From the IMG/VR virus record IMGVR_UViG_3300021335_000003: a stretch of DNA of 64,000 nucleotides. One strand, given 5' to 3'. Below are positions 1,424 through 14,444 of this stretch, in pieces (position 1 is the first letter of the stretch; every line of letters starts with the position of its first letter). The stretch comes from a virus. Under the pieces are notes generated by a model. That model was not told the origin of the DNA, did no database searches, and saw nothing but the letters and a program-made list of their open reading frames with translations. The translations under genes were made by a program, and so were the position numbers.

Positions 1424-4400
1424 TTAAAAGCTACCACCGTCTAGTGTATCAGTCCAAACTGGAGTTGCGTCACTGTCACTTGTTACTGTTAGTACTTGAT
1501 AACTGACGCTTGCATCGCTAGTTCCTGCTGCATCAGTGACTTGTACTGGACTGTCTGCATTACCATACAAAATACCATCTTCAGTAAATTCACTTACACC
1601 TGTACCACCATACTGTACTTCAAGATCGTTATTTGTTAGTATTAGTGTTCCATCAACTGTTACGTCAATGTCAAATGTTGTGTTACCATTTACAGTGCCG
1701 CCTGTAAGTTTGTTTAGGTATCTGTTTTCAACATAAGTTGCAACTGCTTTCTGTGTTGGAGCAGTATTGAAGTCTTGAGTACCAATACTTGATACCAAGT
1801 TTGCGTTGTCACTAACCTCTTTTAGTTCAACACCAACTGGTACGCCGTCTCTAATAAATGGACCAACACTGGTTAGACCTGACAAGTCAATTTCATTAGC
1901 ATTCAGTGTAATAGCACCTGTTAGAGCATTAACACCAAAGAAGTTACCAACTCTAAAGTTACCAATTTGGTCCACTGTACCACCAGCAAACACTCTACCT
2001 TGATTACGTTCGATAATCTCTTGTTCTGGTATTGCTGTACCGCCAAAGAACGGAAGTGCATTGTAATCAACACCTGCACCCACATATTCAAAGGCATGAC
2101 CTGATGTACTAATTGTACTCACATTGTACAGAGCTGCTTTCTTATCAGTTGTAACACTTGTTAGTCCTGGGAAGATAGTAATTTCCGCTGTACCACCAAA
2201 TTCTGCATTTAGATCATCAATTGCTGATGTAACAATCGCTTCTTGATTACCTAGTATAATGTTTCTTTCACTATGATAAACTGCGCTTCCTAATTCGTGA
2301 TTGTGAGGAACTTCATGCCAACCTGTTGTTGTGTTTTCTAATACGCTTAGTGCAATTCTATCAACTAGTAGTTTGATATTATCGCCAACTGTGCTAGAAG
2401 CATCATCATTTGTTAAGAATACTTGGTTTTCAAAGTTTGCATAACTCTTAGTTACAGGATCATTGGCTGCAATTTGTTTCATAATTGTGCCGAGATAATA
2501 ATAGCTATATGCAGTTAAGTCACTTTGATTTGGATAATTTGTACCACTTAGATTGTTTAAGATTGCTCCGCTGTAATATGCAAGTCCTGCTCTACGTGAT
2601 TGTTTGTTACCACCGTACATGATATCATAAATTACTGCATCAATAATATATCCTGTATCACGCTTACACTTGTCTATGTTGTATTCAAATCCTAAAATAC
2701 TTTCGTTGATGTAGTCAATTGTACCTTGTTGGATATTTGCTTTTTGTGATAGCAAACCTGCTGCTGCTGATTTAGTTGATGCTGGAAGCCAACTGTAATC
2801 TGCTTCAATTTCGCCTGGAGTACCAACTAGTGTTTGATTATCTACTGCATCTTTTACAATACCAATCAAATCAACTGCAATTGTACTTTCAACACTTGTA
2901 CCATAATCGCCGCTTAGTACTTGGCTTTCGGTGTTGCCTGGCTGCGGTGTTACAGCAATACCTTGAATACAATCTTCTACCACATCTTGTAAGTGTGTGT
3001 ATGCATCTACTGTGATATCTTTTTGTTCATTTGGCAGATAATTAGTAGTTCCTAAGAAGTATGCTCTTGTTGCAATCAATGTTGCAATATTACCTGTGTA
3101 AAGCAAATCATAAACTATAGCATCAATAATCTGTCCTGTGTCTTCTTTACACTTGTCTTGATCATATGAGAATGCATTGTAAGTTGTTTCTAAGAATGTT
3201 ATTGTGCCATCTACAATAGTTGATTTTTGAGCTTGTAAATTATCAATTGCTGCCTGTGCTCCTGCACTTGCCCAAGTTGTATCTGGATATGTAATACTGC
3301 TTGGCAACTGATCGCTACCATTTTCAATTACATCCTGTATAATTTGTAGTAATGTTTCTGCTCTAGTTACTTCAGTTGCACTTGCTGCACCTGCTGTTGT
3401 ATCTTGAGTTTCGACTGTTTGCTCAGGATCTGCTACAACAACGTCTAATAGCACATCTCCTAGTAATGTTTTAACCCATCCTAATGCTTGTGCTGTTTCT
3501 GTTTGTTGTCCGCTAACTTGACTTGCAGTGCCAACATAATAACTTTGTGCAGCTGAGTATGTTGCTGCATTACCACCATAAAGAATATCATAAGTTAATG
3601 CATCTACAATATATTTTGTGTCTCTATTACACTTAGTTGCGTTAAATTCAAATGTTCTTGTGAAGGTAAAGTTAATATAGTCAATTACTAGGTTTTGGAA
3701 GTAACCTGTGTTGTTTGTTAAACTTGTGAAGTCATTTTGTAAAGTTGAACTTGTCCAAGAAATATCTGTGTCAATATCTGCAGGTAGTCCATCTAAGTTG
3801 CCTGCATTAATAACATCTTCTACAATTTGTATTAAGTTGTCTGCAACACCTGCTTCAATAGCACCTGCACTTGGTCTAGTTGTATCTTGCACAACTGTAA
3901 CCTGTTCAAGTGTTGAGTGTGGAGTACCTTGGATAACGTCTGATAAAACATTTGCAAGTTCTTGATACGCTGCCACTGTTGCCGCTTGTTGTCCTGCACC
4001 TAATTGACTTGTTGTGCCTACAAAATAGCTTTCAGCAGCTTGTTTAGTTGCCAAGTTACCTGGATATAGCAAGTCGTATGCAATAGCATCAACAATATAC
4101 TTTACGTCTCTAGCACACTTGTCTTCATCAAATACCAGTGAAAGATAATTGTTTGTAACAAATGCTGTTGTTTCTGCTGCAATGAAGTCTCTGTTTGCTT
4201 GCAAATGTTCTACAGCAACAGGTTTGTTAGCATTTATACCACTATCTGGATAAACAATCGTATCTGCGGCTGTGTCTGTGCTGGTTTCACCGTTTTCAAT
4301 AATATCAATAATTTCGTTAAAGCCTGCTCTAACTCTATTAACAAATAAACTTGATAAACGGAACATTTGTTCAATAATTTGATCACGCAAGTATTTTATA

Positions 4401-7400
4401 GCAAGAACAGTTTGCAAGTTTTGATCACTTAAAACATAACCACTATTTGCTCTTTGGTATGCTAATCCTGCTGTAACACTATTATAGTTTGTACCAATAG
4501 CACCATCATACGCAACTGCCTCTATCATAATGCCAACATCTCTACGACACTTAGCTTCATCGTATTCAAACGATTGGAAATTGTTAGCAATAAAGATACT
4601 GATGTTGGTTTGTACTAGCTCTTTGTTGCCCTTAATTGTGTTGTAGCCTTGGATTTTTTCCTGTGATGCATAAGTGATATTAGGAAGTTGTGTTGCTGGT
4701 AAATTGTCTAAATTACCGTTTGCAATTACTTGTGTAATAATATCAACTAATCCTTCAGCATCGTCAGCTTCTGTTGAGCTTGCTGGAGTGCCGCTTGTAT
4801 CTTGGAATGCGCCATTGCCTGCAGATTTTACAACAGGCTGTTCGATTAGGATATCTCCTACGATATCTCTAAGTCTATCATATGCACCAGCTGTAGCTGC
4901 TTCTTCACTAGGCGAACCTAGTTGGCTAACACCATCTACAAAATAACTGTTGGCTACTGTAATTGTTGCACTGTTACCACCATACAAAATGTCATGGCAT
5001 AATGCATCAACGATATAACCAACATCACGCTCACATTTTGCACTATCATATGATAAACTTGGGAAGTTTACCGCAATCCAAGCAATCACTTCTGATATAA
5101 TAAAGTTTTTATTTGCAATCAATTGATTTTTAGCTTCTACAGCATTTGTTGTTGGTAGTACACCGGGTGTTGGAAATAACAATGGATCTGCTGCATCGTC
5201 TGTGCTTAGATTACCGTTTTCTAAGATATCAATAACTTCGTCAACCGAAGCATTAACAAGTGGTTCAACTACATCTGTTAGTCCTAAAAGCACAAGTTGC
5301 TTTTTAAGTTCTCTCAAAGACGCACTTGTCTGAATTAATTGATTATCTTGTAAATTAGCATTACTTGCTCTTTGATATGCTAAGCCTGCTGTTACACTGT
5401 TGTAATTTGTTCCTAAAGTAAGGTCAAGTGCAACTGCATCCATTATCAAACCAATATCACGCTCACACTTGTCTCTATTGTATGAGAAGTTTTGATAGTT
5501 GTTCTGTATAAACGATACTGCTTCTGCTGCTAAGAAATCTCTGTTGGCTTGCAATTGATCTTTTGCTGCAATAGTTGCTGCTGTTGCACCAGTTGGATTA
5601 GTAAATGTCAAAGGATCAGCTGCTGTATCCGTGCTAACCACACCATTATTTAAAATATCAATTACTTCATCAAAGTTTGCTTCAACTGCTGTCTGTGTTG
5701 CAGTATCTCCTACTGTTGCAATGCTTGCTTCGCCTTTTGCATAAGATAATGCTGCGGCAGTTTCTGCTAATTGATCTGCAATAACTTTTGCGCTATTTGC
5801 ACGTTGATACGCTAAACCGTTTGTAACTGCATTATAGTTGGTGCCGAGTAGTGCATCATAACCAGCACCGTCGATAATGATACCTGTGTCTCTTTCACAC
5901 TTGGCTTGGTCATATGTGAAGTTATTGTTGTTGATATATGCTACAACATCCTCTTGTAAGAACGCTCTGTTTGCAACAACTTGTGCATGAGCATTAATTA
6001 ATTCTGTGCTTGCAGGACCCGGTGTAGGATACAAATTACCTTCACTTGGTTGTTGATCAAATTCAATTATGTTAAAGATGTCTTCAAATAAGTTAGTAAC
6101 TTTTGTTTGGAATATTGCACTTCCATTTGATGCTGCTACTGCAAGATCGCCAGCGTGTCTCAATGCAATGATAGTTGCTGGTCTTTGCTCTGTATTTAGG
6201 TAAGCAACGTTTGCTCTGCTATAACTTAATGCCGCTGTAATACTGTGATGGTTTGTATCAACTAGTGCATCTCGATAAACGGCATCAACTATATAACCTA
6301 CATCACGCTTACATTTTTCAACATCATAGGTTAAGGTAGGATTATTTGCTTTGTTGTAGTCAATAGCATCTTGTATGTAGTTTGGTACTTGTGAAAGCAC
6401 TTGATTGGCTGCATCAACTTGTGGAATTGGTTCATCGCTAATGTCTGGATATCTTTTGGTTGCTAGATTTGTTAATGTTTGTTCATTAATAATTAACTCT
6501 AAGTTTTGAATCAATGCATCTAATTCACTAGCTTCAACTTGTGTGGCTGTACCACTTGAAAAATCTTGTGATTCCACATTTCCTGTGGTTGCTGTAACAG
6601 TAAATCCTCTAACAATACGTTGTACAATAAATCTTACTCTTGCAAATGCATCTTCAATAATTGCAATTTGTGCAGTTGTAAAGCCACTCCATGTTACCGC
6701 ATTGAATATATATTTTGTTTCTTGTACTGTAGCAGTGTTGCCGCCATAAAGTATATCATATGATAGCGCATCAACTAGATTACTAACATAATCTTCCCAT
6801 TCAGCTTGATCATATTCTATTGTGCCACCGTTTAAATCAACGTATGCAACCCAGTCTGCAATTATAAAATCTTTGTTTGCTTGCAATTGATTTTTTGCAT
6901 CAACACCGTTTTGAGTAAATCCGCTATGTGTAGGATATAGACTAACAATACCTGTACTATCGCCGTCATCAACAACGTTTTTTAATGTGTTTATTGTTTC
7001 ATCAACTGCCGCTTGAGCAGGACCGTTTGCTGCAACAAAACTTAGATTTTTAAATTGTGTTCTAAGATATTCAAAACTAGATAACAACATGTCTCTAAAG
7101 CGAGGTCTGTATCTAAATTCTTGTGCTTGACGTACAACGTTGTGTGTTCCTCCGTGCGCAATATAGTATGACATTTCTGTTAATAATTGTGTCAAATCTT
7201 CTGTATATTGTGCTTGATTGTAACTTAATTCTGTAAATTGATCATTGATGTATGCACTTAACTCTTCGATAATAAAATCTCTATTGGCTAAAATATTGTC
7301 TTTTGCTTCGATTACTTCGCCGTCAATTGTGGTTAAATCGTTAAGTGTAGCAGCGTAGTCACTACCTAAATATTCTGTAGCACTACTGTCGCCTGCGTTT

Positions 7401-9016
7401 AATGTATCAACAATAACTGCAAATCTTTGATCAATTTCTTCTTTGAGAGCAAGATTTGTAGTTAATGCTTTCATTTCGTCTCGTGTTGCTTCAATACCGT
7501 AAATAGTAGGAGCCAACTGATCTAAAATAACTTTTCTACTTGTGCTACGCAAATAGCTTGTTGCTGCGGCTGTACTTTGATAATATGTGCCAAACACAAT
7601 ATCACTAGTTACAGCATCAATAATTCTGCGCACGTCTCTTTTACAGGTTTCAACATTATATGTAAAAGGATTTTCTGTAATTTCGTTAGCAGTGATGTAA
7701 TAATATGTTTCGTCGCCTTCAAATTTGATAATACTACCAGTTTGCGGTTTGTCTCTCAAACTTGCAAGTTCAATACTGCTATTAGTTGATAGATTAACAT
7801 CAGCAGTAGCATCAACACTTGCACCGCCGCCAGTGAATCTAACCTGTGGAATTTCGGTATATCCACTACCTTGATTGTCAATAGTGACAGCACTAACTGT
7901 TCCTGTTGTGATGTCAATTTGTGCAGTACCTTGTGCAGTTACACCGCCTGCACCAAGTGGTGGATCAAATGTAACAGTTGGTGCGCTGGTATAACCAATA
8001 CCCGGAAAATCCATAGTAACACTTGCTACTTTTGAGAAATAATCTTGTGTTGGAACAGCTTCAGTGTATGCAATTGGATAGAAGCCATCTGCTACAACAC
8101 CTTCTGTACCAAAGTCACTAACTGAGTTTGAAATACTTAGGTAACCACCTTTGGTAGTTAGGAAACCTACGCTACAGAAAACTGAGAAGCAACTAACAAT
8201 CTGTGTATAACCAAAGTTTGTAATGTGGAAGCCAATACCACCTTGTGAAATCTGTGTAAATGCGTCTGCAACAAATGAGAATACAAGTGATGCAGGATCA
8301 TACTCGTCGCCATCAACAAGTATGCCGCCGCCTCCGCCTGTTAGATTAACTTGTTTTTCAACAGGAAGATCTGGATAGTCTGCAACTTGTAAAGGTCTTG
8401 CACCTGGTTCGATACCTTCAATTTGAACTGTTTCAAATGGTGTAAATTCAGTACCGTCATTCAACCAAGGACCGTTCATGTTAGTACAGTTTTGTACGTA
8501 CGGTGATGTTGTAACAAGTGCGCCTGGACGGATTCTTGCACACCAACCCGGATAACGTAGTCCTCTAAATGTCATTTGGAATAGATAACAACCGTTGCCC
8601 ATAAAGAACAAATCATCTGTATTGTTCTTAGGAAAAATTCTTGTGTTACGTAATTCGCCTTGTCCTGAAACAGTCACAAAGTCTCTAAGTGTAATAGGGT
8701 TATCTTCAACGTAATCACCAGGTGCAACAACAATTAAACTACCTTCAGGTGCTACTTCTGCTGCTTTTTTAATACTAGCAAACGCTCCGTTAGCATCTTG
8801 ACTTCGGCCGTCATTGTTATCACTGCCTTCTTCAGTAACATAATAAATGTTCTGTGTCTTTGGACCTGATGTACTACCATCAACAACAACGTCTGCGTCA
8901 ATTCTAAATTGTTTGCCTTCGTCGAGATTCATTTCTATATTGCCATCTGCGGTCAATATAAAAGTATTGTCTCCTACTTTCCTTTGATGTAATGACTGTC
9001 TCTTTATAAAACTCAT
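1424..9016 (-). CDS. Giant (2530 aa) virion structural/fibre protein: pectin-lyase-like beta-helix region interrupted by 12 helical repeats of about 140-160 aa
   Basis: N-terminal YYVTEEGSDNNDG..AFASIKKA..VAPGDY motif; repeats Y/F-x3-KCxRD-x-GY-IVDA-x2-D-x3-G-[GT]-N; C-terminal SGHAFEYVGAG..DQIGNFRVG and fibre-like end TLDGGSF. Confidence 0.75.
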   Translation of the reverse strand: MSFIKRQSLHQRKVGDNTFILTADGNIEMNLDEGKQFRIDADVVVDGSTSGPKTQNIYYVTEEGSDNNDGRSQDANGAFASIKKAAEVAPEGSLIVVAPGDYVEDNPITLRDFVTVSGQGELRNTRIFPKNNTDDLFFMGNGCYLFQMTFRGLRYPGWCARIRPGALVTTSPYVQNCTNMNGPWLNDGTEFTPFETVQIEGIEPGARPLQVADYPDLPVEKQVNLTGGGGGILVDGDEYDPASLVFSFVADAFTQISQGGIGFHITNFGYTQIVSCFSVFCSVGFLTTKGGYLSISNSVSDFGTEGVVADGFYPIAYTEAVPTQDYFSKVASVTMDFPGIGYTSAPTVTFDPPLGAGGVTAQGTAQIDITTGTVSAVTIDNQGSGYTEIPQVRFTGGGASVDATADVNLSTNSSIELASLRDKPQTGSIIKFEGDETYYYITANEITENPFTYNVETCKRDVRRIIDAVTSDIVFGTYYQSTAAATSYLRSTSRKVILDQLAPTIYGIEATRDEMKALTTNLALKEEIDQRFAVIVDTLNAGDSSATEYLGSDYAATLNDLTTIDGEVIEAKDNILANRDFIIEELSAYINDQFTELSYNQAQYTEDLTQLLTEMSYYIAHGGTHNVVRQAQEFRYRPRFRDMLLSSFEYLRTQFKNLSFVAANGPAQAAVDETINTLKNVVDDGDSTGIVSLYPTHSGFTQNGVDAKNQLQANKDFIIADWVAYVDLNGGTIEYDQAEWEDYVSNLVDALSYDILYGGNTATVQETKYIFNAVTWSGFTTAQIAIIEDAFARVRFIVQRIVRGFTVTATTGNVESQDFSSGTATQVEASELDALIQNLELIINEQTLTNLATKRYPDISDEPIPQVDAANQVLSQVPNYIQDAIDYNKANNPTLTYDVEKCKRDVGYIVDAVYRDALVDTNHHSITAALSYSRANVAYLNTEQRPATIIALRHAGDLAVAASNGSAIFQTKVTNLFEDIFNIIEFDQQPSEGNLYPTPGPASTELINAHAQVVANRAFLQEDVVAYINNNNFTYDQAKCERDTGIIIDGAGYDALLGTNYNAVTNGLAYQRANSAKVIADQLAETAAALSYAKGEASIATVGDTATQTAVEANFDEVIDILNNGVVSTDTAADPLTFTNPTGATAATIAAKDQLQANRDFLAAEAVSFIQNNYQNFSYNRDKCERDIGLIMDAVALDLTLGTNYNSVTAGLAYQRASNANLQDNQLIQTSASLRELKKQLVLLGLTDVVEPLVNASVDEVIDILENGNLSTDDAADPLLFPTPGVLPTTNAVEAKNQLIANKNFIISEVIAWIAVNFPSLSYDSAKCERDVGYIVDALCHDILYGGNSATITVANSYFVDGVSQLGSPSEEAATAGAYDRLRDIVGDILIEQPVVKSAGNGAFQDTSGTPASSTEADDAEGLVDIITQVIANGNLDNLPATQLPNITYASQEKIQGYNTIKGNKELVQTNISIFIANNFQSFEYDEAKCRRDVGIMIEAVAYDGAIGTNYNSVTAGLAYQRANSGYVLSDQNLQTVLAIKYLRDQIIEQMFRLSSLFVNRVRAGFNEIIDIIENGETSTDTAADTIVYPDSGINANKPVAVEHLQANRDFIAAETTAFVTNNYLSLVFDEDKCARDVKYIVDAIAYDLLYPGNLATKQAAESYFVGTTSQLGAGQQAATVAAYQELANVLSDVIQGTPHSTLEQVTVVQDTTRPSAGAIEAGVADNLIQIVEDVINAGNLDGLPADIDTDISWTSSTLQNDFTSLTNNTGYFQNLVIDYINFTFTRTFEFNATKCNRDTKYIVDALTYDILYGGNAATYSAAQSYYVGTASQVSGQQTETAQALGWVKTLLGDVLLDVVVADPEQTVETQDTTAGAASATEVTRAETLLQIIQDVIENGSDQLPSSITYPDTTWASAGAQAAIDNLQAQKSTIVDGTITFLETTYNAFSYDQDKCKEDTGQIIDAIVYDLLYTGNIATLIATRAYFLGTTNYLPNEQKDITVDAYTHLQDVVEDCIQGIAVTPQPGNTESQVLSGDYGTSVESTIAVDLIGIVKDAVDNQTLVGTPGEIEADYSWLPASTKSAAAGLLSQKANIQQGTIDYINESILGFEYNIDKCKRDTGYIIDAVIYDIMYGGNKQSRRAGLAYYSGAILNNLSGTNYPNQSDLTAYSYYYLGTIMKQIAANDPVTKSYANFENQVFLTNDDASSTVGDNIKLLVDRIALSVLENTTTGWHEVPHNHELGSAVYHSERNIILGNQEAIVTSAIDDLNAEFGGTAEITIFPGLTSVTTDKKAALYNVSTISTSGHAFEYVGAGVDYNALPFFGGTAIPEQEIIERNQGRVFAGGTVDQIGNFRVGNFFGVNALTGAITLNANEIDLSGLTSVGPFIRDGVPVGVELKEVSDNANLVSSIGTQDFNTAPTQKAVATYVENRYLNKLTGGTVNGNTTFDIDVTVDGTLILTNNDLEVQYGGTGVSEFTEDGILYGNADSPVQVTDAAGTSDASVSYQVLTVTSDSDATPVWTDTLDGGSF
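2400..7670 (-). repeat. Twelve protein-level tandem repeats (KCxRD family)
   Basis: Motif centres near 7644, 7206, 6798, 6312, 5898, 5466, 5034, 4548, 4115, 3628, 3148 and 2665; spacing about 136-162 codons. Confidence 0.9.
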
Positions 9017-9358: not shown

Positions 9359-10414
9359 TTAAAAAATTATACTATAAAGCAGAGCTTTGTTTCTGCTTAC
9401 AAATTCGTCTTGTGTTCCGTCTTGGTTTGTAAAATACAATCCAGTTCCGCCATCGCCTAAGGCTTTACTGTAAAGTGTGATACCTTCTGAGGGTGGATCT
9501 GCAGGGTCTGATTCTAACAAAAAGTTTTGATAACCATCAATTTCAACTTGACCGGTGCCGCTACCTCTAAGTCTAATTGCAGTATTAATACCATTACTTG
9601 TAATAACACCAACATCACCTGGATCAGAAATAAATCTCAAGTTACCAATTTCAACTCTGGTATCATAAAAGTTTGTGTAATTTACACCATCAAGTGTAAT
9701 AACAACTTTTGTATCTCCGCCGTCGATATCAGCATCAAAAATTTCTACACTACTGTCATCTTTAGCAATCTTAGGTTGGAAGAAATTTGTATGATAACTA
9801 TCAACATATTCTACCAAACTCTTTGCACTAACCAATGCATCATTTTTACCTGCTTGCACAGGACCTGCACTAAAGTTGATTTCTAAATCAAGCAAATCAG
9901 TTGGATTATCGTAAAGGAAAACTTGTCTTTCATAATTGGTTACACCTGTAACTGTTACAGTACCTGTGCCTTGTCCAATTAAGTACAAGTCTTCGTTTGT
10001 ATCAGTGATAATACTACTTGTATGAATACCTTTGTATTCGCCATTTCCTAAACCAAAGTAAAATGCTCCTGGATCTACACCGCCTGAATCAAAACCGTCA
10101 AGGTCTTCATCATAAAAGATTCTAGCATCTACTAGTTCTCCAGGACCTCTACTGATAATAATACCAGCACCGCGATTATATCCATCTAATAGATCTTTAA
10201 TACCACCTACAGTTTCGTTTTTGTTTATTGTGAACGTTTTGTCACCAATAGCAACTTCTGTTGATTCAACAGTTGTTGTTACACCTAATACATCTAAGTC
10301 ACCTTTTACAGTAACTTTACCTACAGCATTACCTGTGTCAAAAACGATTTCTCCAGCGTCATTGACTTCGATTGTGTATTTGTCTGCACCTATACGATTG
10401 AAACGTTCAGCCAT
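9359..10414 (-). CDS. Virion structural protein (fibre-associated)
   Basis: 351 aa; V.GDL.V.G.TTTVES...I.D...T.NK.E..G motif typical of phage fibre proteins; SD AGGAG upstream. Confidence 0.6.
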   Translation of the reverse strand: MAERFNRIGADKYTIEVNDAGEIVFDTGNAVGKVTVKGDLDVLGVTTTVESTEVAIGDKTFTINKNETVGGIKDLLDGYNRGAGIIISRGPGELVDARIFYDEDLDGFDSGGVDPGAFYFGLGNGEYKGIHTSSIITDTNEDLYLIGQGTGTVTVTGVTNYERQVFLYDNPTDLLDLEINFSAGPVQAGKNDALVSAKSLVEYVDSYHTNFFQPKIAKDDSSVEIFDADIDGGDTKVVITLDGVNYTNFYDTRVEIGNLRFISDPGDVGVITSNGINTAIRLRGSGTGQVEIDGYQNFLLESDPADPPSEGITLYSKALGDGGTGLYFTNQDGTQDEFVSRNKALLYSIIF

Positions 10415-10425
10415 CTAAGTGCTCC

Positions 10426-10788
10426 TTAAATAGCTGTTAAACGTAAAACTGTATCGGTTGAATCGTCTTCTAAATCCCAAGTGTAACGATTGCTATCAAA
10501 ATCTACTGCTGTTCTGTTGAATAGTTTTTTGATAACTCTGCGCACTCCGCCGGCATCAAAACCTTCGATAACCATTTCGCCTGCTGCTACACTATCAGTT
10601 GCTTTGTTAACCAAACGGCAAACTGCTGTTGCTGTAGCACCGTTGTTTGACACTGTGAACTTGTTTGTTCCTCTTTGGTCTACAATGTATGCTTGCTCGT
10701 CAATACCGCCGCCAACATATGCACGTACTGTGATATTCGTTGCGTCAGCCGGATCTCCGAAATTTCTTTTATTTACTGGACGTCCCAT
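10426..10788 (-). CDS. Conserved phage protein (MGRP-x-NK family), probably virion-associated
   Basis: 120 aa; strong SD AAGGAG; preceded by a late box and a structured leader. Confidence 0.65.
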   Translation of the reverse strand: MGRPVNKRNFGDPADATNITVRAYVGGGIDEQAYIVDQRGTNKFTVSNNGATATAVCRLVNKATDSVAAGEMVIEGFDAGGVRRVIKKLFNRTAVDFDSNRYTWDLEDDSTDTVLRLTAI

Positions 10789-10799
10789 TTGTTTCTCCT

Positions 10800-10879
10800 T
10801 TGTTACGTTCTAAGTAATACGCGGTTGGTCTTCCGCATAAGTCCTCATCTAGAGGTTCTCTCTATGACAATAGTATTTA
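10800..10879 (-). promoter_or_regulatory. Late promoter box (10874-10879) and three-hairpin 5' leader
   Basis: gaTAAATAc followed by CCUC/GAGG, UAUGCGG/CCGCGUA and UUAC/GUAA hairpins just upstream of the SD. Confidence 0.55.
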
Positions 10880-10911
10880 TCAAATTAAATAAAATGGGTT
10901 ATAATGTCCGT

Positions 10912-10944
10912 AAAAAAAGGCCTGCAATTATGTTGCAGACCTTT
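10912..10944 (-). terminator. Intrinsic terminator
   Basis: AAAGGUCUGCAA-cauaa-UUGCAGGCCUUU followed by a U tract on the minus strand. Confidence 0.8.
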
Positions 10945-10949
10945 CTCTA

Positions 10950-11167
10950 TTAATGTGATAGGTAGGACTAAGGATTACCTACAAGTGCCGTGACATATCC
11001 TGTCTACATAACTAGCACAACCTCACAATAGAATGGTTAGTTCTACTTTCTCTGCAACGCCTTGTCTCCAAGGTCTTACAGCGCCACCATAGCGTGTGAG
11101 TCAAGTTAATGCCTATGTGAAGCATCGTTTCCTTGCACTATCTAACTCGGACCGTCGTCTTTGTTAT
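10950..11167 (-). ncRNA. Candidate structured ncRNA of about 215 nt, family not recognised
   Basis: No ORF; sigma70-like promoter upstream and terminator downstream; about 10 helices with many G-U pairs and a GAGA tetraloop on the minus strand. Confidence 0.7.
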
Positions 11168-11173
11168 GTACTT

Positions 11174-11201
11174 AATATAGCATATACAAAATAAAAGTCA
11201 A
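11174..11201 (-). promoter_or_regulatory. sigma70-like promoter for the ncRNA candidate
   Basis: TTGACT-16 nt-TATATT with an extended -10 TG. Confidence 0.65.
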
Positions 11202-11206
11202 CCTCT

Positions 11207-11401
11207 TTATTCAACTTTTTTTAAATTTTCTGCATGTTTTCTGCCATTTTTTTCTACTGGTTCGTATTCAACTCTATCGCCCAATTTCAAATTATGTTCT
11301 TTTTTTCTGAACAAAACATCAGTCCTATTTTGTCCCCATTCGTCGGGACGTATTAATCCGTGAATACCAATAAATTTATAAACTTGTCCTGTGACTATCA
11401 T
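11207..11401 (-). CDS. Cold-shock-domain (OB-fold) protein, divergent
   Basis: 64 aa; G.V..F...G.I.PD....DV.F....L..GDRVEYE....G.K.A.NL pattern of CspA-like domains, RNP1/RNP2 aromatics partly lost. Confidence 0.7.
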   Translation of the reverse strand: MIVTGQVYKFIGIHGLIRPDEWGQNRTDVLFRKKEHNLKLGDRVEYEPVEKNGRKHAENLKKVE

Positions 11402-12160: not shown

Positions 12161-13339
12161 TTATGAGAAGCTTAGGTTTGCTGCATTTGTCTGTAGGTCG
12201 ATTAGCGCCAAGTAGTCGGCTGCGTTACCTAGAGACGATGCTGTGTTTGATAGCTCAACATAACCATAACGTGTCATAAATGATACTGTTGGTTCGAATG
12301 TTGATGGATCAAGAACAACACCTGAAGACATTAGTGGGATGTATGGGCAGTAGAACGCTGCTGCGTCTGACTCGCTTGTACCTTTGTATCCAACTAGGAT
12401 GTCGTCGTTTGCTGCATATGTGTTTACATACACTTTCATTGCGCCATTCAATGTACCAACCATTTTTGTGTTTGTTGGTGCTTCAAATGTGCCTTCTGTT
12501 GTACGTGCAAATGCAGAAGTTGTTGCAGATTGTAGGATTGTCAATGTTGTTGGTGAAACAACTGCCCAGTTACCAGCACCGCGGCGAGTACGCTGAGCGA
12601 TTCTGTTTGCTGCACGGTTGACTAGAACTGCTAGAGCAGCATGTTCGTCACCTACGAATGTTGCAGTACCTGAAACAGCAGCTTGATTGTATGTATCTGA
12701 TGCTGTACCAGCTAGTGTTGTTAGAGATGCTAGGACCTCTTGGTCGATCTCTGCTGTGATTTCTTGAGCCAAAGCAGCCATAATTTCTGCTTCAACGTCA
12801 ATACCGTGCTGTGACTGAGCGTCTTGAGCAGCTTCAAAGGTCCAACGTGCTGATAGCTTACGTGTTTTCGCTTCTACAGTCTGTTTCAAGATCTGGATGC
12901 TTAGTCTGTTTCCAGCTTCACCTTCAAGTGCCGCAGTTGCGTCAGCTTTTGCTGTTGTAGCATTACCTGAATATGCTTCTGCGATTTTGAATGGTGATAG
13001 TGCTTCTTCACCAGCTACTGCGCCTGATGCGCCTGAGCCTGCTGTGTCGCTGTAGCGAACACGCAATGTGTGAATCTGACCAACTGGACCAGTCATTGGT
13101 TGTACACCAACTAGTTCGTTTGCAATAACTGTTGGCATAACACGTCTGATCACTGGAAGGATCACACGGTTAAGTGTTGCGATGTTACCGGCAGATGTAG
13201 CACCAGCAGTTGCAGTTTCAGCCAAATACTTGCGAGTATTTTCTAGCGTTGAAGCCATTACTGCTTTCTTATTGCCTTGTAGGCCTTCAAGAAGTGCGCT
13301 TTTTGTATCGTGCCAGCGACTTTCTAATAGTTCTGACAT
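12161..13339 (-). CDS. gp23: Major capsid protein (T4 gp23 family)
   Basis: LPVIRRVMP..IA.ELVGVQPMTGP.GQI, VEAKTRKLSARWTFEAAQD, EI..EIDQE, FYCPYIP, MTRYG; start placed at MSELLES (13339) after AGGAG. Confidence 0.97.
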   Translation of the reverse strand: MSELLESRWHDTKSALLEGLQGNKKAVMASTLENTRKYLAETATAGATSAGNIATLNRVILPVIRRVMPTVIANELVGVQPMTGPVGQIHTLRVRYSDTAGSGASGAVAGEEALSPFKIAEAYSGNATTAKADATAALEGEAGNRLSIQILKQTVEAKTRKLSARWTFEAAQDAQSQHGIDVEAEIMAALAQEITAEIDQEVLASLTTLAGTASDTYNQAAVSGTATFVGDEHAALAVLVNRAANRIAQRTRRGAGNWAVVSPTTLTILQSATTSAFARTTEGTFEAPTNTKMVGTLNGAMKVYVNTYAANDDILVGYKGTSESDAAAFYCPYIPLMSSGVVLDPSTFEPTVSFMTRYGYVELSNTASSLGNAADYLALIDLQTNAANLSFS

Positions 13340-13352
13340 TGGTTTCTCCTCT

Positions 13353-14444
13353 TTATAGTCCAGCAAGACGTTTTAAATCAACTACATTGTGATCTACGTC
13401 TGCTTTGATGTCATTTGATTGGGTTCTGTTGCCTGTTACTTCTTTTGCCTCTGCTAATACTGCCTTTTGCTTCGCTGGACCTTTACCGTCAATAACTGCC
13501 GGTAGGTATTTGTCAAACGCAGAACGTAGTCTGTCTGTTTGAACTGATTCCAGTAAGTCTACCATAATTTCACGCTGGTCTTTGCTTAGTGGCGCAACCA
13601 TATCGCTAATTGTGTCTTTGCGTTTTGCACTTTCAGTGATCATTTTATTTTGATGTGCTTGTGCTTCTGCAAGTTTGATTGCTTTAGACGCTGCTTCTCT
13701 TGCTTCTGCTAGTTGTTTGTCTTTAGCACCAACAACTTTTAGAAGTTTTGAAGTTTCACTCTTCTCGTTTAGATATGAGTGTTGATATTCGTTTGCAAAT
13801 GCTTCGAATAGTTTGCGTCCAAAATCATTTTCACGTGCTTGATCGATATCTTCTTTAAGTGCTGAGATCTCTTTTTTAAGACCTTTAGCAACTGTTTCTG
13901 ATACCAACGCTGCACTTTTCTTAATAAAGTCTTGTTTAACTTTATCAACATGAGCTTTGCCTTCACGTACAAGACGTACTTTTGTTTCGGCAAGATCTTT
14001 TTTGTCTTCGTAAAACTCTGCAATTTCTTTTGCAAGTGACTCAACTACAAACTCTTCTAGTGCAACAAACTTGTCAGCCATTGCTTTTTGATCTGAGTGT
14101 AGTTCTTTGATTTCTTTTGCTAGTGTTTCACTAACAAATGATTTCATTAGATTTGCATTTTTACGCTGTGCAATAGCAAATTTAGCTTTTGCTTCTGCTA
14201 GTTGCTTGCGATCTTCTTGGAATTCTGCAATTTCTTCGCTAAGTTTTTCTGTCATCATAGCATCAATGGCTTCAACCATTGTTGTTTTATCATGCTCATA
14301 CTTTTTAGCAAATTCTTCACGTAGTTCCGCAGTCGCTTGTAGGCGATTTTCTTTCACCTTTGCGTTCCATGCTTCTTCTAGTTCTGAGCGCACTTCTTCT
14401 GATAGTGCTGAATTTTCGAAGAGTGATTTTAGTGCATCTAACAT
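13353..14444 (-). CDS. gp22: Prohead core scaffold protein (gp22-like)
   Basis: Coiled-coil, E/K/A-rich, located between the protease and capsid genes. Confidence 0.8.
   Translation of the reverse strand: MLDALKSLFENSALSEEVRSELEEAWNAKVKENRLQATAELREEFAKKYEHDKTTMVEAIDAMMTEKLSEEIAEFQEDRKQLAEAKAKFAIAQRKNANLMKSFVSETLAKEIKELHSDQKAMADKFVALEEFVVESLAKEIAEFYEDKKDLAETKVRLVREGKAHVDKVKQDFIKKSAALVSETVAKGLKKEISALKEDIDQARENDFGRKLFEAFANEYQHSYLNEKSETSKLLKVVGAKDKQLAEAREAASKAIKLAEAQAHQNKMITESAKRKDTISDMVAPLSKDQREIMVDLLESVQTDRLRSAFDKYLPAVIDGKGPAKQKAVLAEAKEVTGNRTQSNDIKADVDHNVVDLKRLAGL

Follow-up and report, generated by a model that had tools for sequence, protein, structure and literature searches.

The minus strand of the 64,000-nucleotide stretch of viral DNA analysed here (the window; IMG/VR record IMGVR_UViG_3300021335_000003) carries a structured RNA that belongs to the catalogued manA family (Rfam RF01745) and is predicted to be transcribed separately from its neighbours. 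The structured RNA is real, and it does not constitute a new RNA family. In the reading that we favour, to which we assign a probability of roughly 0.6, the manA RNA of this virus is a self-contained gene with early-type transcription, whose product acts as a homo-oligomeric particle by means of two covarying kissing-loop contacts. Specifically, a sigma70-type promoter and a terminator of its own would yield a discrete manA transcript, separable from the next gene. The RNA itself would be the end product, exerting no control over its neighbour, and it would most likely assemble into a homo-oligomer through the loop pairs L5/L7 and L8/L9, as suggested by their complementarity, their covariation and the kissing loops formed by manA RNAs in vitro.

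The identity of the RNA emerges from a full-length match to the Rfam manA model, positions 1-192 of 192, at 11161..10952 (-), with a score of 52.0 bits and E-values of 2.2e-12 locally and 2e-10 on the whole 64-kb window. The gathering score of RF01745 is 55.2 bits, that is, 3.2 bits above the window copy, and routine annotation overlooks the RNA because its score lies under this curated cut-off. An Rfam scan at gathering thresholds, in fact, reported only a freshwater-2 RNA at 10786-10857, and manA surfaced with E-value thresholds. Against the same Rfam model, syntenic orthologues in three contigs reach 89.3, 60.8 and 55.4 bits, all above the gathering score, which makes the window copy a true, if slightly divergent, member of the family. 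The family is wider than annotated, since the Rfam threshold misses members in giant non-cyanophage T4-like phages. The original prediction had described an ornate phage RNA, equipped with its own transcription unit and outside any family that it recognised. The first part of this description stands, the unit being a predicted one, whereas the claim of novelty gives way to the confident RF01745 match and to the orthologues above the gathering score.

The manA RNA was introduced as a riboswitch candidate occurring in marine metagenomes, T4-like cyanophages and two gamma-proteobacteria (Weinberg et al. 2010, PMC2864571), a label repeated by later phage papers. The window copy displays the architecture of the family, consisting of a 5′ hairpin, a closing stem, a P3 hairpin, a P4 stem with three hairpins, and the hairpins P8 and P9. 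The interface elements are also present, as L5/L7 and L8/L9 are complementary and L6 is a GNRA loop, under a helix numbering that we infer to correspond to that of a recent cryo-EM preprint on manA (10.64898/2026.07.01.735769). The cis-regulatory 5′ UTR position implied by the Rfam type is not found at this locus, where a terminator followed by a distinct late promoter sets the RNA apart from the next gene; this discrepancy is a matter of annotation, not of fold.

The RNA core spans about 210 nt and nine helices at 10952..11169 (-), and a covariance model built in this analysis (R1) matches it at 11169..10954 with 210 bits. The 5′ hairpin P1 (11144..11165), capped by a GACG loop (11156-11153) that is found in original manA seed sequences too, changes on both sides at all 9 of its pairs across homologues, and in the subgroup of the window it carries a 3x3 internal loop. 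The closing stem P2 (10957..11142) pairs 11142-11138 with 10961-10957 and encloses P3 to P9; 97.7% of its alignment cells are paired and 3 of its pairs are changed on both sides. Within it, the covarying stem P4 (11022..11100; 11100-11095 with 11027-11022) bears P5, P6 and P7, with the loops L5 at 11091-11085, L6 at 11068-11065 and L7 at 11041-11033. All 11 pairs of P6 covary, and its loop is a GNRA tetraloop in every homologue, reading GAGA, GUGA or GAAA. Toward the 3′ side follow P8 (10985..11018), also backed by covariation, with its apical loop L8 at 11001-10995, and P9 (10962..10982), with an 11-nt loop L9 at 10977-10967, 100% of its cells paired and 2 pairs covarying.

Covariation across the whole structure was assessed on a MAFFT alignment of 25 sequences, in which 84.5% of the cells at paired positions are indeed paired, against 73% in shuffled alignments and 34-47% in slid controls. 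As many as 39 pairs change on both sides, a number reached by none of 500 shuffles, and a model-based alignment raises the count to 43. In one subgroup P4 and P7 score low because the alignment is shifted there by a single column, the pairings CUAGUA/UGCUAG and UUGGA/UCCGA being recognisable by eye. In addition, the minimum-energy folds of divergent members (the window copy, L004, L069 and L009) independently give the same nine-helix layout. The fold is specific to the minus strand, with a z-score against shuffles of -4.03 compared with -0.96 for the plus strand, as the original prediction had proposed from its many G-U pairs.

This covariation also sorts the individual pairings drawn by eye in that prediction. 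Ten of its helices coincide with consensus helices of manA and are maintained by compensatory changes. Its first helix, pairing 11149-11143 with 11108-11102, performs no better than shuffled controls (54 of 500) and clashes with the covarying 5′ hairpin at 11165-11144. The long-range pseudoknot dissolves in turn: the GAUAG/CUAUC pairing corresponds to P2, which closes the multi-helix junction, and the UGCAAG/CUUGUA pairing never varies and is unsupported.

Other identities for the transcript were considered and rejected. ARAGORN finds neither a tRNA nor a tmRNA in the window, in agreement with the initial assessment. Nor is the region likely to be coding: the sole same-strand ORF within the RNA encodes 37 aa (11125..11012), its ATG lies inside a strand of a covarying helix and is not kept in homologues, the substitutions in helices are compensatory and the indels are not multiples of three. 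The earlier statement that the segment holds no ORF is thus correct in substance.

The signals that flank the fold are equally well defined, and both had been spotted correctly beforehand. The sigma70-type promoter occupies 11174..11201 (-), with the -35 element TTGACT at 11201-11196, a 16-nt spacer and a TG-extended -10 element TATATT at 11182-11174. From its position, transcription is predicted to start at about 11169-11165, and the paired stretch of the RNA begins about 7 nt past the -10 element and ends at 10957. At the other end, an intrinsic terminator at 10912..10944 (-) is composed of a hairpin of 12-16 bp with a 12-bp core stem, a 5-nt loop and a T7 tail, and has a folding energy of -19.7 kcal/mol (z -6.3). 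A simple terminator scan called this hairpin on the plus strand only; it is the minus strand that has the T7 tail. The predicted transcript would accordingly measure about 255 nt, from about 11167 to 10912. Sigma70-type promoters are of the kind that T4-like phages use early.

Both signals are under conservation. The -35 element and the TGnTATAnT block are invariant or nearly so in 25 homologues, with a freely drifting spacer between them; the promoter hexamers and the TG are kept in all of about 24 distinct homologues, and the terminator in all but two. The terminator stem itself covaries, with 6 pairs changed on both sides and 91% pairing. Its sequence takes at least six forms and the adjacent strands of the aptamer stay constant, a pattern that leaves no co-varying antiterminator. 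Moreover, the terminator starts 12 nt past P2 with no overlap with the fold, and the two coexist in the minimum-energy structure; the mutually exclusive aptamer and terminator pairing of a riboswitch expression platform is not seen here.

Directly upstream of the promoter lies a 64-aa ORF (11207-11401, -), which has its stop at 11207 and a weak match to the cold-shock domain (Pfam CSD, 18.4 bits, cut-off 27). No terminator separates this ORF from the manA promoter, and late read-through transcripts would therefore also carry the manA RNA as a 3′ tail.

Downstream, the order of elements on the minus strand is the manA terminator, a late promoter box, a freshwater-2 leader, a Shine-Dalgarno sequence and a gene of 120 aa. 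The T4-type late promoter box GATAAATA (10874..10881, -) does not vary at any locus, not even in relatives that do not have manA. The freshwater-2 RNA (RF02980; 10786..10857, -; 51.6 bits against a gathering score of 49.9) begins about 16 nt past the box and constitutes the leader of the 120-aa gene (10788..10426, -). It forms three hairpins, in which compensatory changes can be seen by eye (CCUC/GAGG against CCGC/GCGG; GCGG/CCGC against GCAG/CUGC and GCUG/CAGC), and this orphan motif thereby gains a defined setting, that of a late-gene leader in giant T4-like phages. A block of 19 nt between the terminator and the late promoter (10891-10909, -) is conserved in most homologues and absent from L043, L054, L009, L018 and L021. 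Farther downstream, the operon of the 120-aa gene includes genes for 351-aa and 110-aa proteins and a 2530-aa ORF (1424-9016, -), presumably encoding a giant fibre or structural protein.

The independence of this downstream unit is apparent from natural variation. The relatives L010-L013, L022 and L023 possess the late promoter, the leader and the gene and have no manA, and in L019 a 356-aa ORF is interposed between manA and the 120-aa gene. In L040 (3931-4128) the RNA is preserved as far as P6 and there joins the late promoter directly, with P7-P9 and the terminator lost and the leader kept; this deletion suggests either that manA is dispensable for the next gene or that the genome is defective. 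Taken together, a late promoter and leader that are retained without manA and a terminator that does not compete with the fold identify manA as a separate module in this clade, rather than a switch of its neighbour.

These comparisons draw on an IMG/VR search with both flanking proteins, which returned 74 loci. In 49 of them, 31 distinct, nhmmer followed by the R1 model located the manA RNA at the same syntenic place, and promoter, fold and terminator are conserved together in about 25 distinct related contigs. The part of the genome covered by a 187-kb relative contains no manA. The major capsid protein of the window (12161-13366, Pfam Gp23) shares 66-70% identity with its counterparts in Phosso, Vibrio phage 2.275.O and PA5oct, and related contigs of 155-187 kb are about half complete according to CheckV. 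The host genome is thus that of an uncultured giant T4-like virus, not a cyanophage. Neither covariance model detects manA in PA5oct, Vibrio phage 2.275.O or Phosso, and a search for a cultured stand-in for this clade found none. Blastn of the locus against cultured phages gave no match, and with the L009 copy as query it returned only promoter-like 40-mers in Lactococcus phages.

The homo-oligomeric reading draws on two contacts between hairpin loops. The L5-L7 contact pairs UGGU at 11089-11086 with ACCA at 11037-11034 (-) and is 91.6% paired across homologues, compared with 27-72% in slid controls. At its central position 14 sequences have AU, 10 have GC and 1 has GU, the contact reading UGGU:ACCA in the subgroup of the window and UAGU:ACUA in others. 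The L8-L9 contact joins AGGAU at 11001-10997 to AUCCU at 10975-10971 (-) and is 85.6% paired against 66% in shuffled controls; column by column, four of its five pairs are changed on both sides, with a covariation score of 0.472 against 0.136 and no shuffle of 500 reaching it. One and the same register accommodates AGGAU:AUCCU, CUGAU:AUCAG, AUGA:UCAU and GAGAG:UUCUC, and cultured cyanophages have ACUGU:ACAGU. A cruder test, comparing the duplex energies of cognate and non-cognate pairs of L8 region and L9, did not reach significance (2093 of 20000 permutations); the region used included stem sequence, and the valid test of this contact is the column-wise one.

Recent cryo-EM work provides a likely structural counterpart of these contacts. 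Five other manA RNAs were found to assemble in vitro into pentamer-based particles, namely octamers, decamers and a T=1 shell of 60 subunits, held together by intermolecular L5-L7′ and L8-L9′ kissing loops; an alternative interface combines a GNRA-receptor contact of L6 with L5-L7′ and L3-L8′ (10.64898/2026.07.01.735769). Assembly took place at about 3 mg/ml RNA, 10 mM Mg and 50 °C, conditions far from physiological, and covariation and genomic context were outside the scope of that preprint (10.64898/2026.07.01.735769). The contacts that covary in nature would be the same L5-L7 and L8-L9 contacts, assuming that the helices of the preprint are numbered from 5′ to 3′, a mapping for which the GNRA loop of L6 is the one support. 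By itself, covariation is consistent with loop pairing between molecules and within one molecule alike.

This last consideration leaves room for the main rival, which we nonetheless regard as rather unlikely: a stand-alone, trans-acting monomer, in which L5-L7 and L8-L9 pair intramolecularly to lock a compact fold whose binding partner would be a small molecule or a protein of host or phage, the cages being formed in vitro only. The promoter, the terminator and the evidence for separability fit such a monomer equally well; P5 and P7 depart from one junction, making an internal L5-L7 kiss sterically plausible, and assembly has been seen only with concentrated RNA at 50 °C. However, the same loop pairs form between subunits in five different manA constructs (10.64898/2026.07.01.735769), and an internal L8-L9 kiss would be awkward, P8 being much longer than P9.

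Two further explanations would deny the RNA its autonomy. The element might be a cis-regulatory leader or riboswitch, whose ligand-dependent fold decides between a stop at the terminator and read-in to the 120-aa gene. This is how Weinberg et al. (2010) rated manA as a candidate and how Rfam types it, and most cyanophage-type copies do lie close upstream of a same-strand ORF and without a hairpin terminator, the start codon in P-SSM2 being 16 nt off. In the clade of the window, on the other hand, the terminator stands 12 nt past P2 and forms together with the fold, its arms vary with no matching changes in the aptamer, and the late promoter and leader of the downstream gene are invariant and kept in relatives devoid of manA. 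Across the family, moreover, manA is followed by heterogeneous genes, by tRNAs or by genes on the opposite strand, so that we judge regulation of the neighbour improbable. More improbable still is a 3′-end or read-through element, that is, a processive antitermination RNA or a stabilising 3′ tail of capsid-operon mRNAs. The placement of manA directly after a promoter, the path free of terminators from the upstream ORF (stop 11207) into the RNA and the location of several cyanophage copies right behind gp23 or gp24 would all agree with it. Against this, the Rfam scan reveals no likeness to known antitermination RNAs, a pure 3′ tail would not need a conserved promoter of its own, and copies inside tRNA arrays fit poorly.

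How far the stand-alone arrangement extends was addressed by a survey of 94 distinct cyanophage-type copies in IMG/VR. A sigma70-like promoter is present in 75 of them; a hairpin terminator within 110 nt was found in only 18, with none in the other 76, a same-strand ORF starts within 60 nt in 53, and 9 of the 94 touch a tRNA. What stays constant across the family is therefore a promoter immediately upstream rather than insulation, and these numbers do not support a stand-alone manA throughout the family. Most cyanophage copies are placed like 5′ leaders, as in P-SSM2, where 16 nt, with no hairpin terminator among them, separate manA from the next start codon; the gene that follows in P-TIM68 is encoded on the opposite strand. 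In S-CREM1 (L078 / L082, record 10132-10501) manA sits between tRNA-Leu and tRNA-Asn with a spacer of at most 1 nt on each side, and would be freed by tRNA processing. The stand-alone reading thus holds for the clade described here and is not generalised to the family.

The cyanophage copies have features of their own. In L084, L086, L087, L088, L090 and L091, a G+C-rich hairpin is found about 30-70 nt upstream of manA, with the -35 element of the promoter in its loop. The T-tract of the same hairpin serves as the promoter spacer, terminator and promoter being packed into an element of about 45 nt in many cultured cyanophages. In addition, CDSs for hypothetical proteins of 30-70 aa overlie manA in the GenBank records of L085 (P-HM2), L088 (S-SSM5), L089 (P-SSM4), P-HM1 and S-TIM4, and are probably mis-annotations.

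Compared with the rest of the family, the window copy shares the full-length model match, the nine helices, the GNRA loop L6, the complementary L5/L7 and L8/L9 loops and a T4-like host genome, along with a series of single-stranded signatures: a GUG past P2, an L5 of the GGUGG type, an L7 of the AACCA type, a GGU linker and a GGUA start of L9. It also has in common with others an extended -10 sigma70 promoter directly upstream (P-SSM2, P-SSM7, S-SSM5, P-RSM4 and others) and a position behind the major capsid gene (S-SSM5, P-RSM4, metaG-MbCM1). It differs in the internal loop of P1, in having AGGAU:AUCCU instead of ACUGU:ACAGU in L8/L9, and in residing in a giant phage that is not a cyanophage. 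The strong terminator that insulates manA from the next gene is likewise a trait of this clade, being missing from 76 of the 94 cyanophage-type copies.

A comparison with other systems helps to place these findings. Transcription-terminating riboswitches similarly have a structured RNA directly past a promoter, followed by an intrinsic terminator; unlike them, the manA fold and its terminator neither overlap nor compete, and a separate promoter serves the downstream gene. Within T4-type genomes, the small stable RNAs C and D of phage T4 are also genes in their own right, and to our knowledge their function is not known. The likeness to manA lies in this status as own genes and, for the copy in S-CREM1, in a location inside a tRNA array. 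As for RNAs that multimerise, ROOL and GOLLD are phage-borne and lie near tRNAs, and we know of no function for either. ROOL, GOLLD and OLE are several hundred nucleotides in length, have no sequence or fold in common with manA and yielded no match here in the Rfam scan. All three form protein-free homo-oligomers through loop-loop contacts, in dihedral assemblies (summarised in 10.64898/2026.07.01.735769).

For 16 years manA has been an orphan, and it is still catalogued as cis-regulatory. The clade described here offers a clean natural example of manA insulated as its own gene, which argues that, at least in this case, the RNA is the product. Furthermore, the two loop pairs that, under our numbering, hold subunits together in the 2026 cryo-EM structures show covariation among natural phages. 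Tentatively, the covariation of L5-L7 and L8-L9 might reflect selection on contacts between subunits, so that early in infection RNA-only, pentamer-based particles or cages, with clade-specific L8/L9 codes, would perform a role of their own. If this were true, the L8/L9 codes would restrict assembly to RNAs of the same kind, and the resulting particle may, for example, enclose or sequester a host factor.
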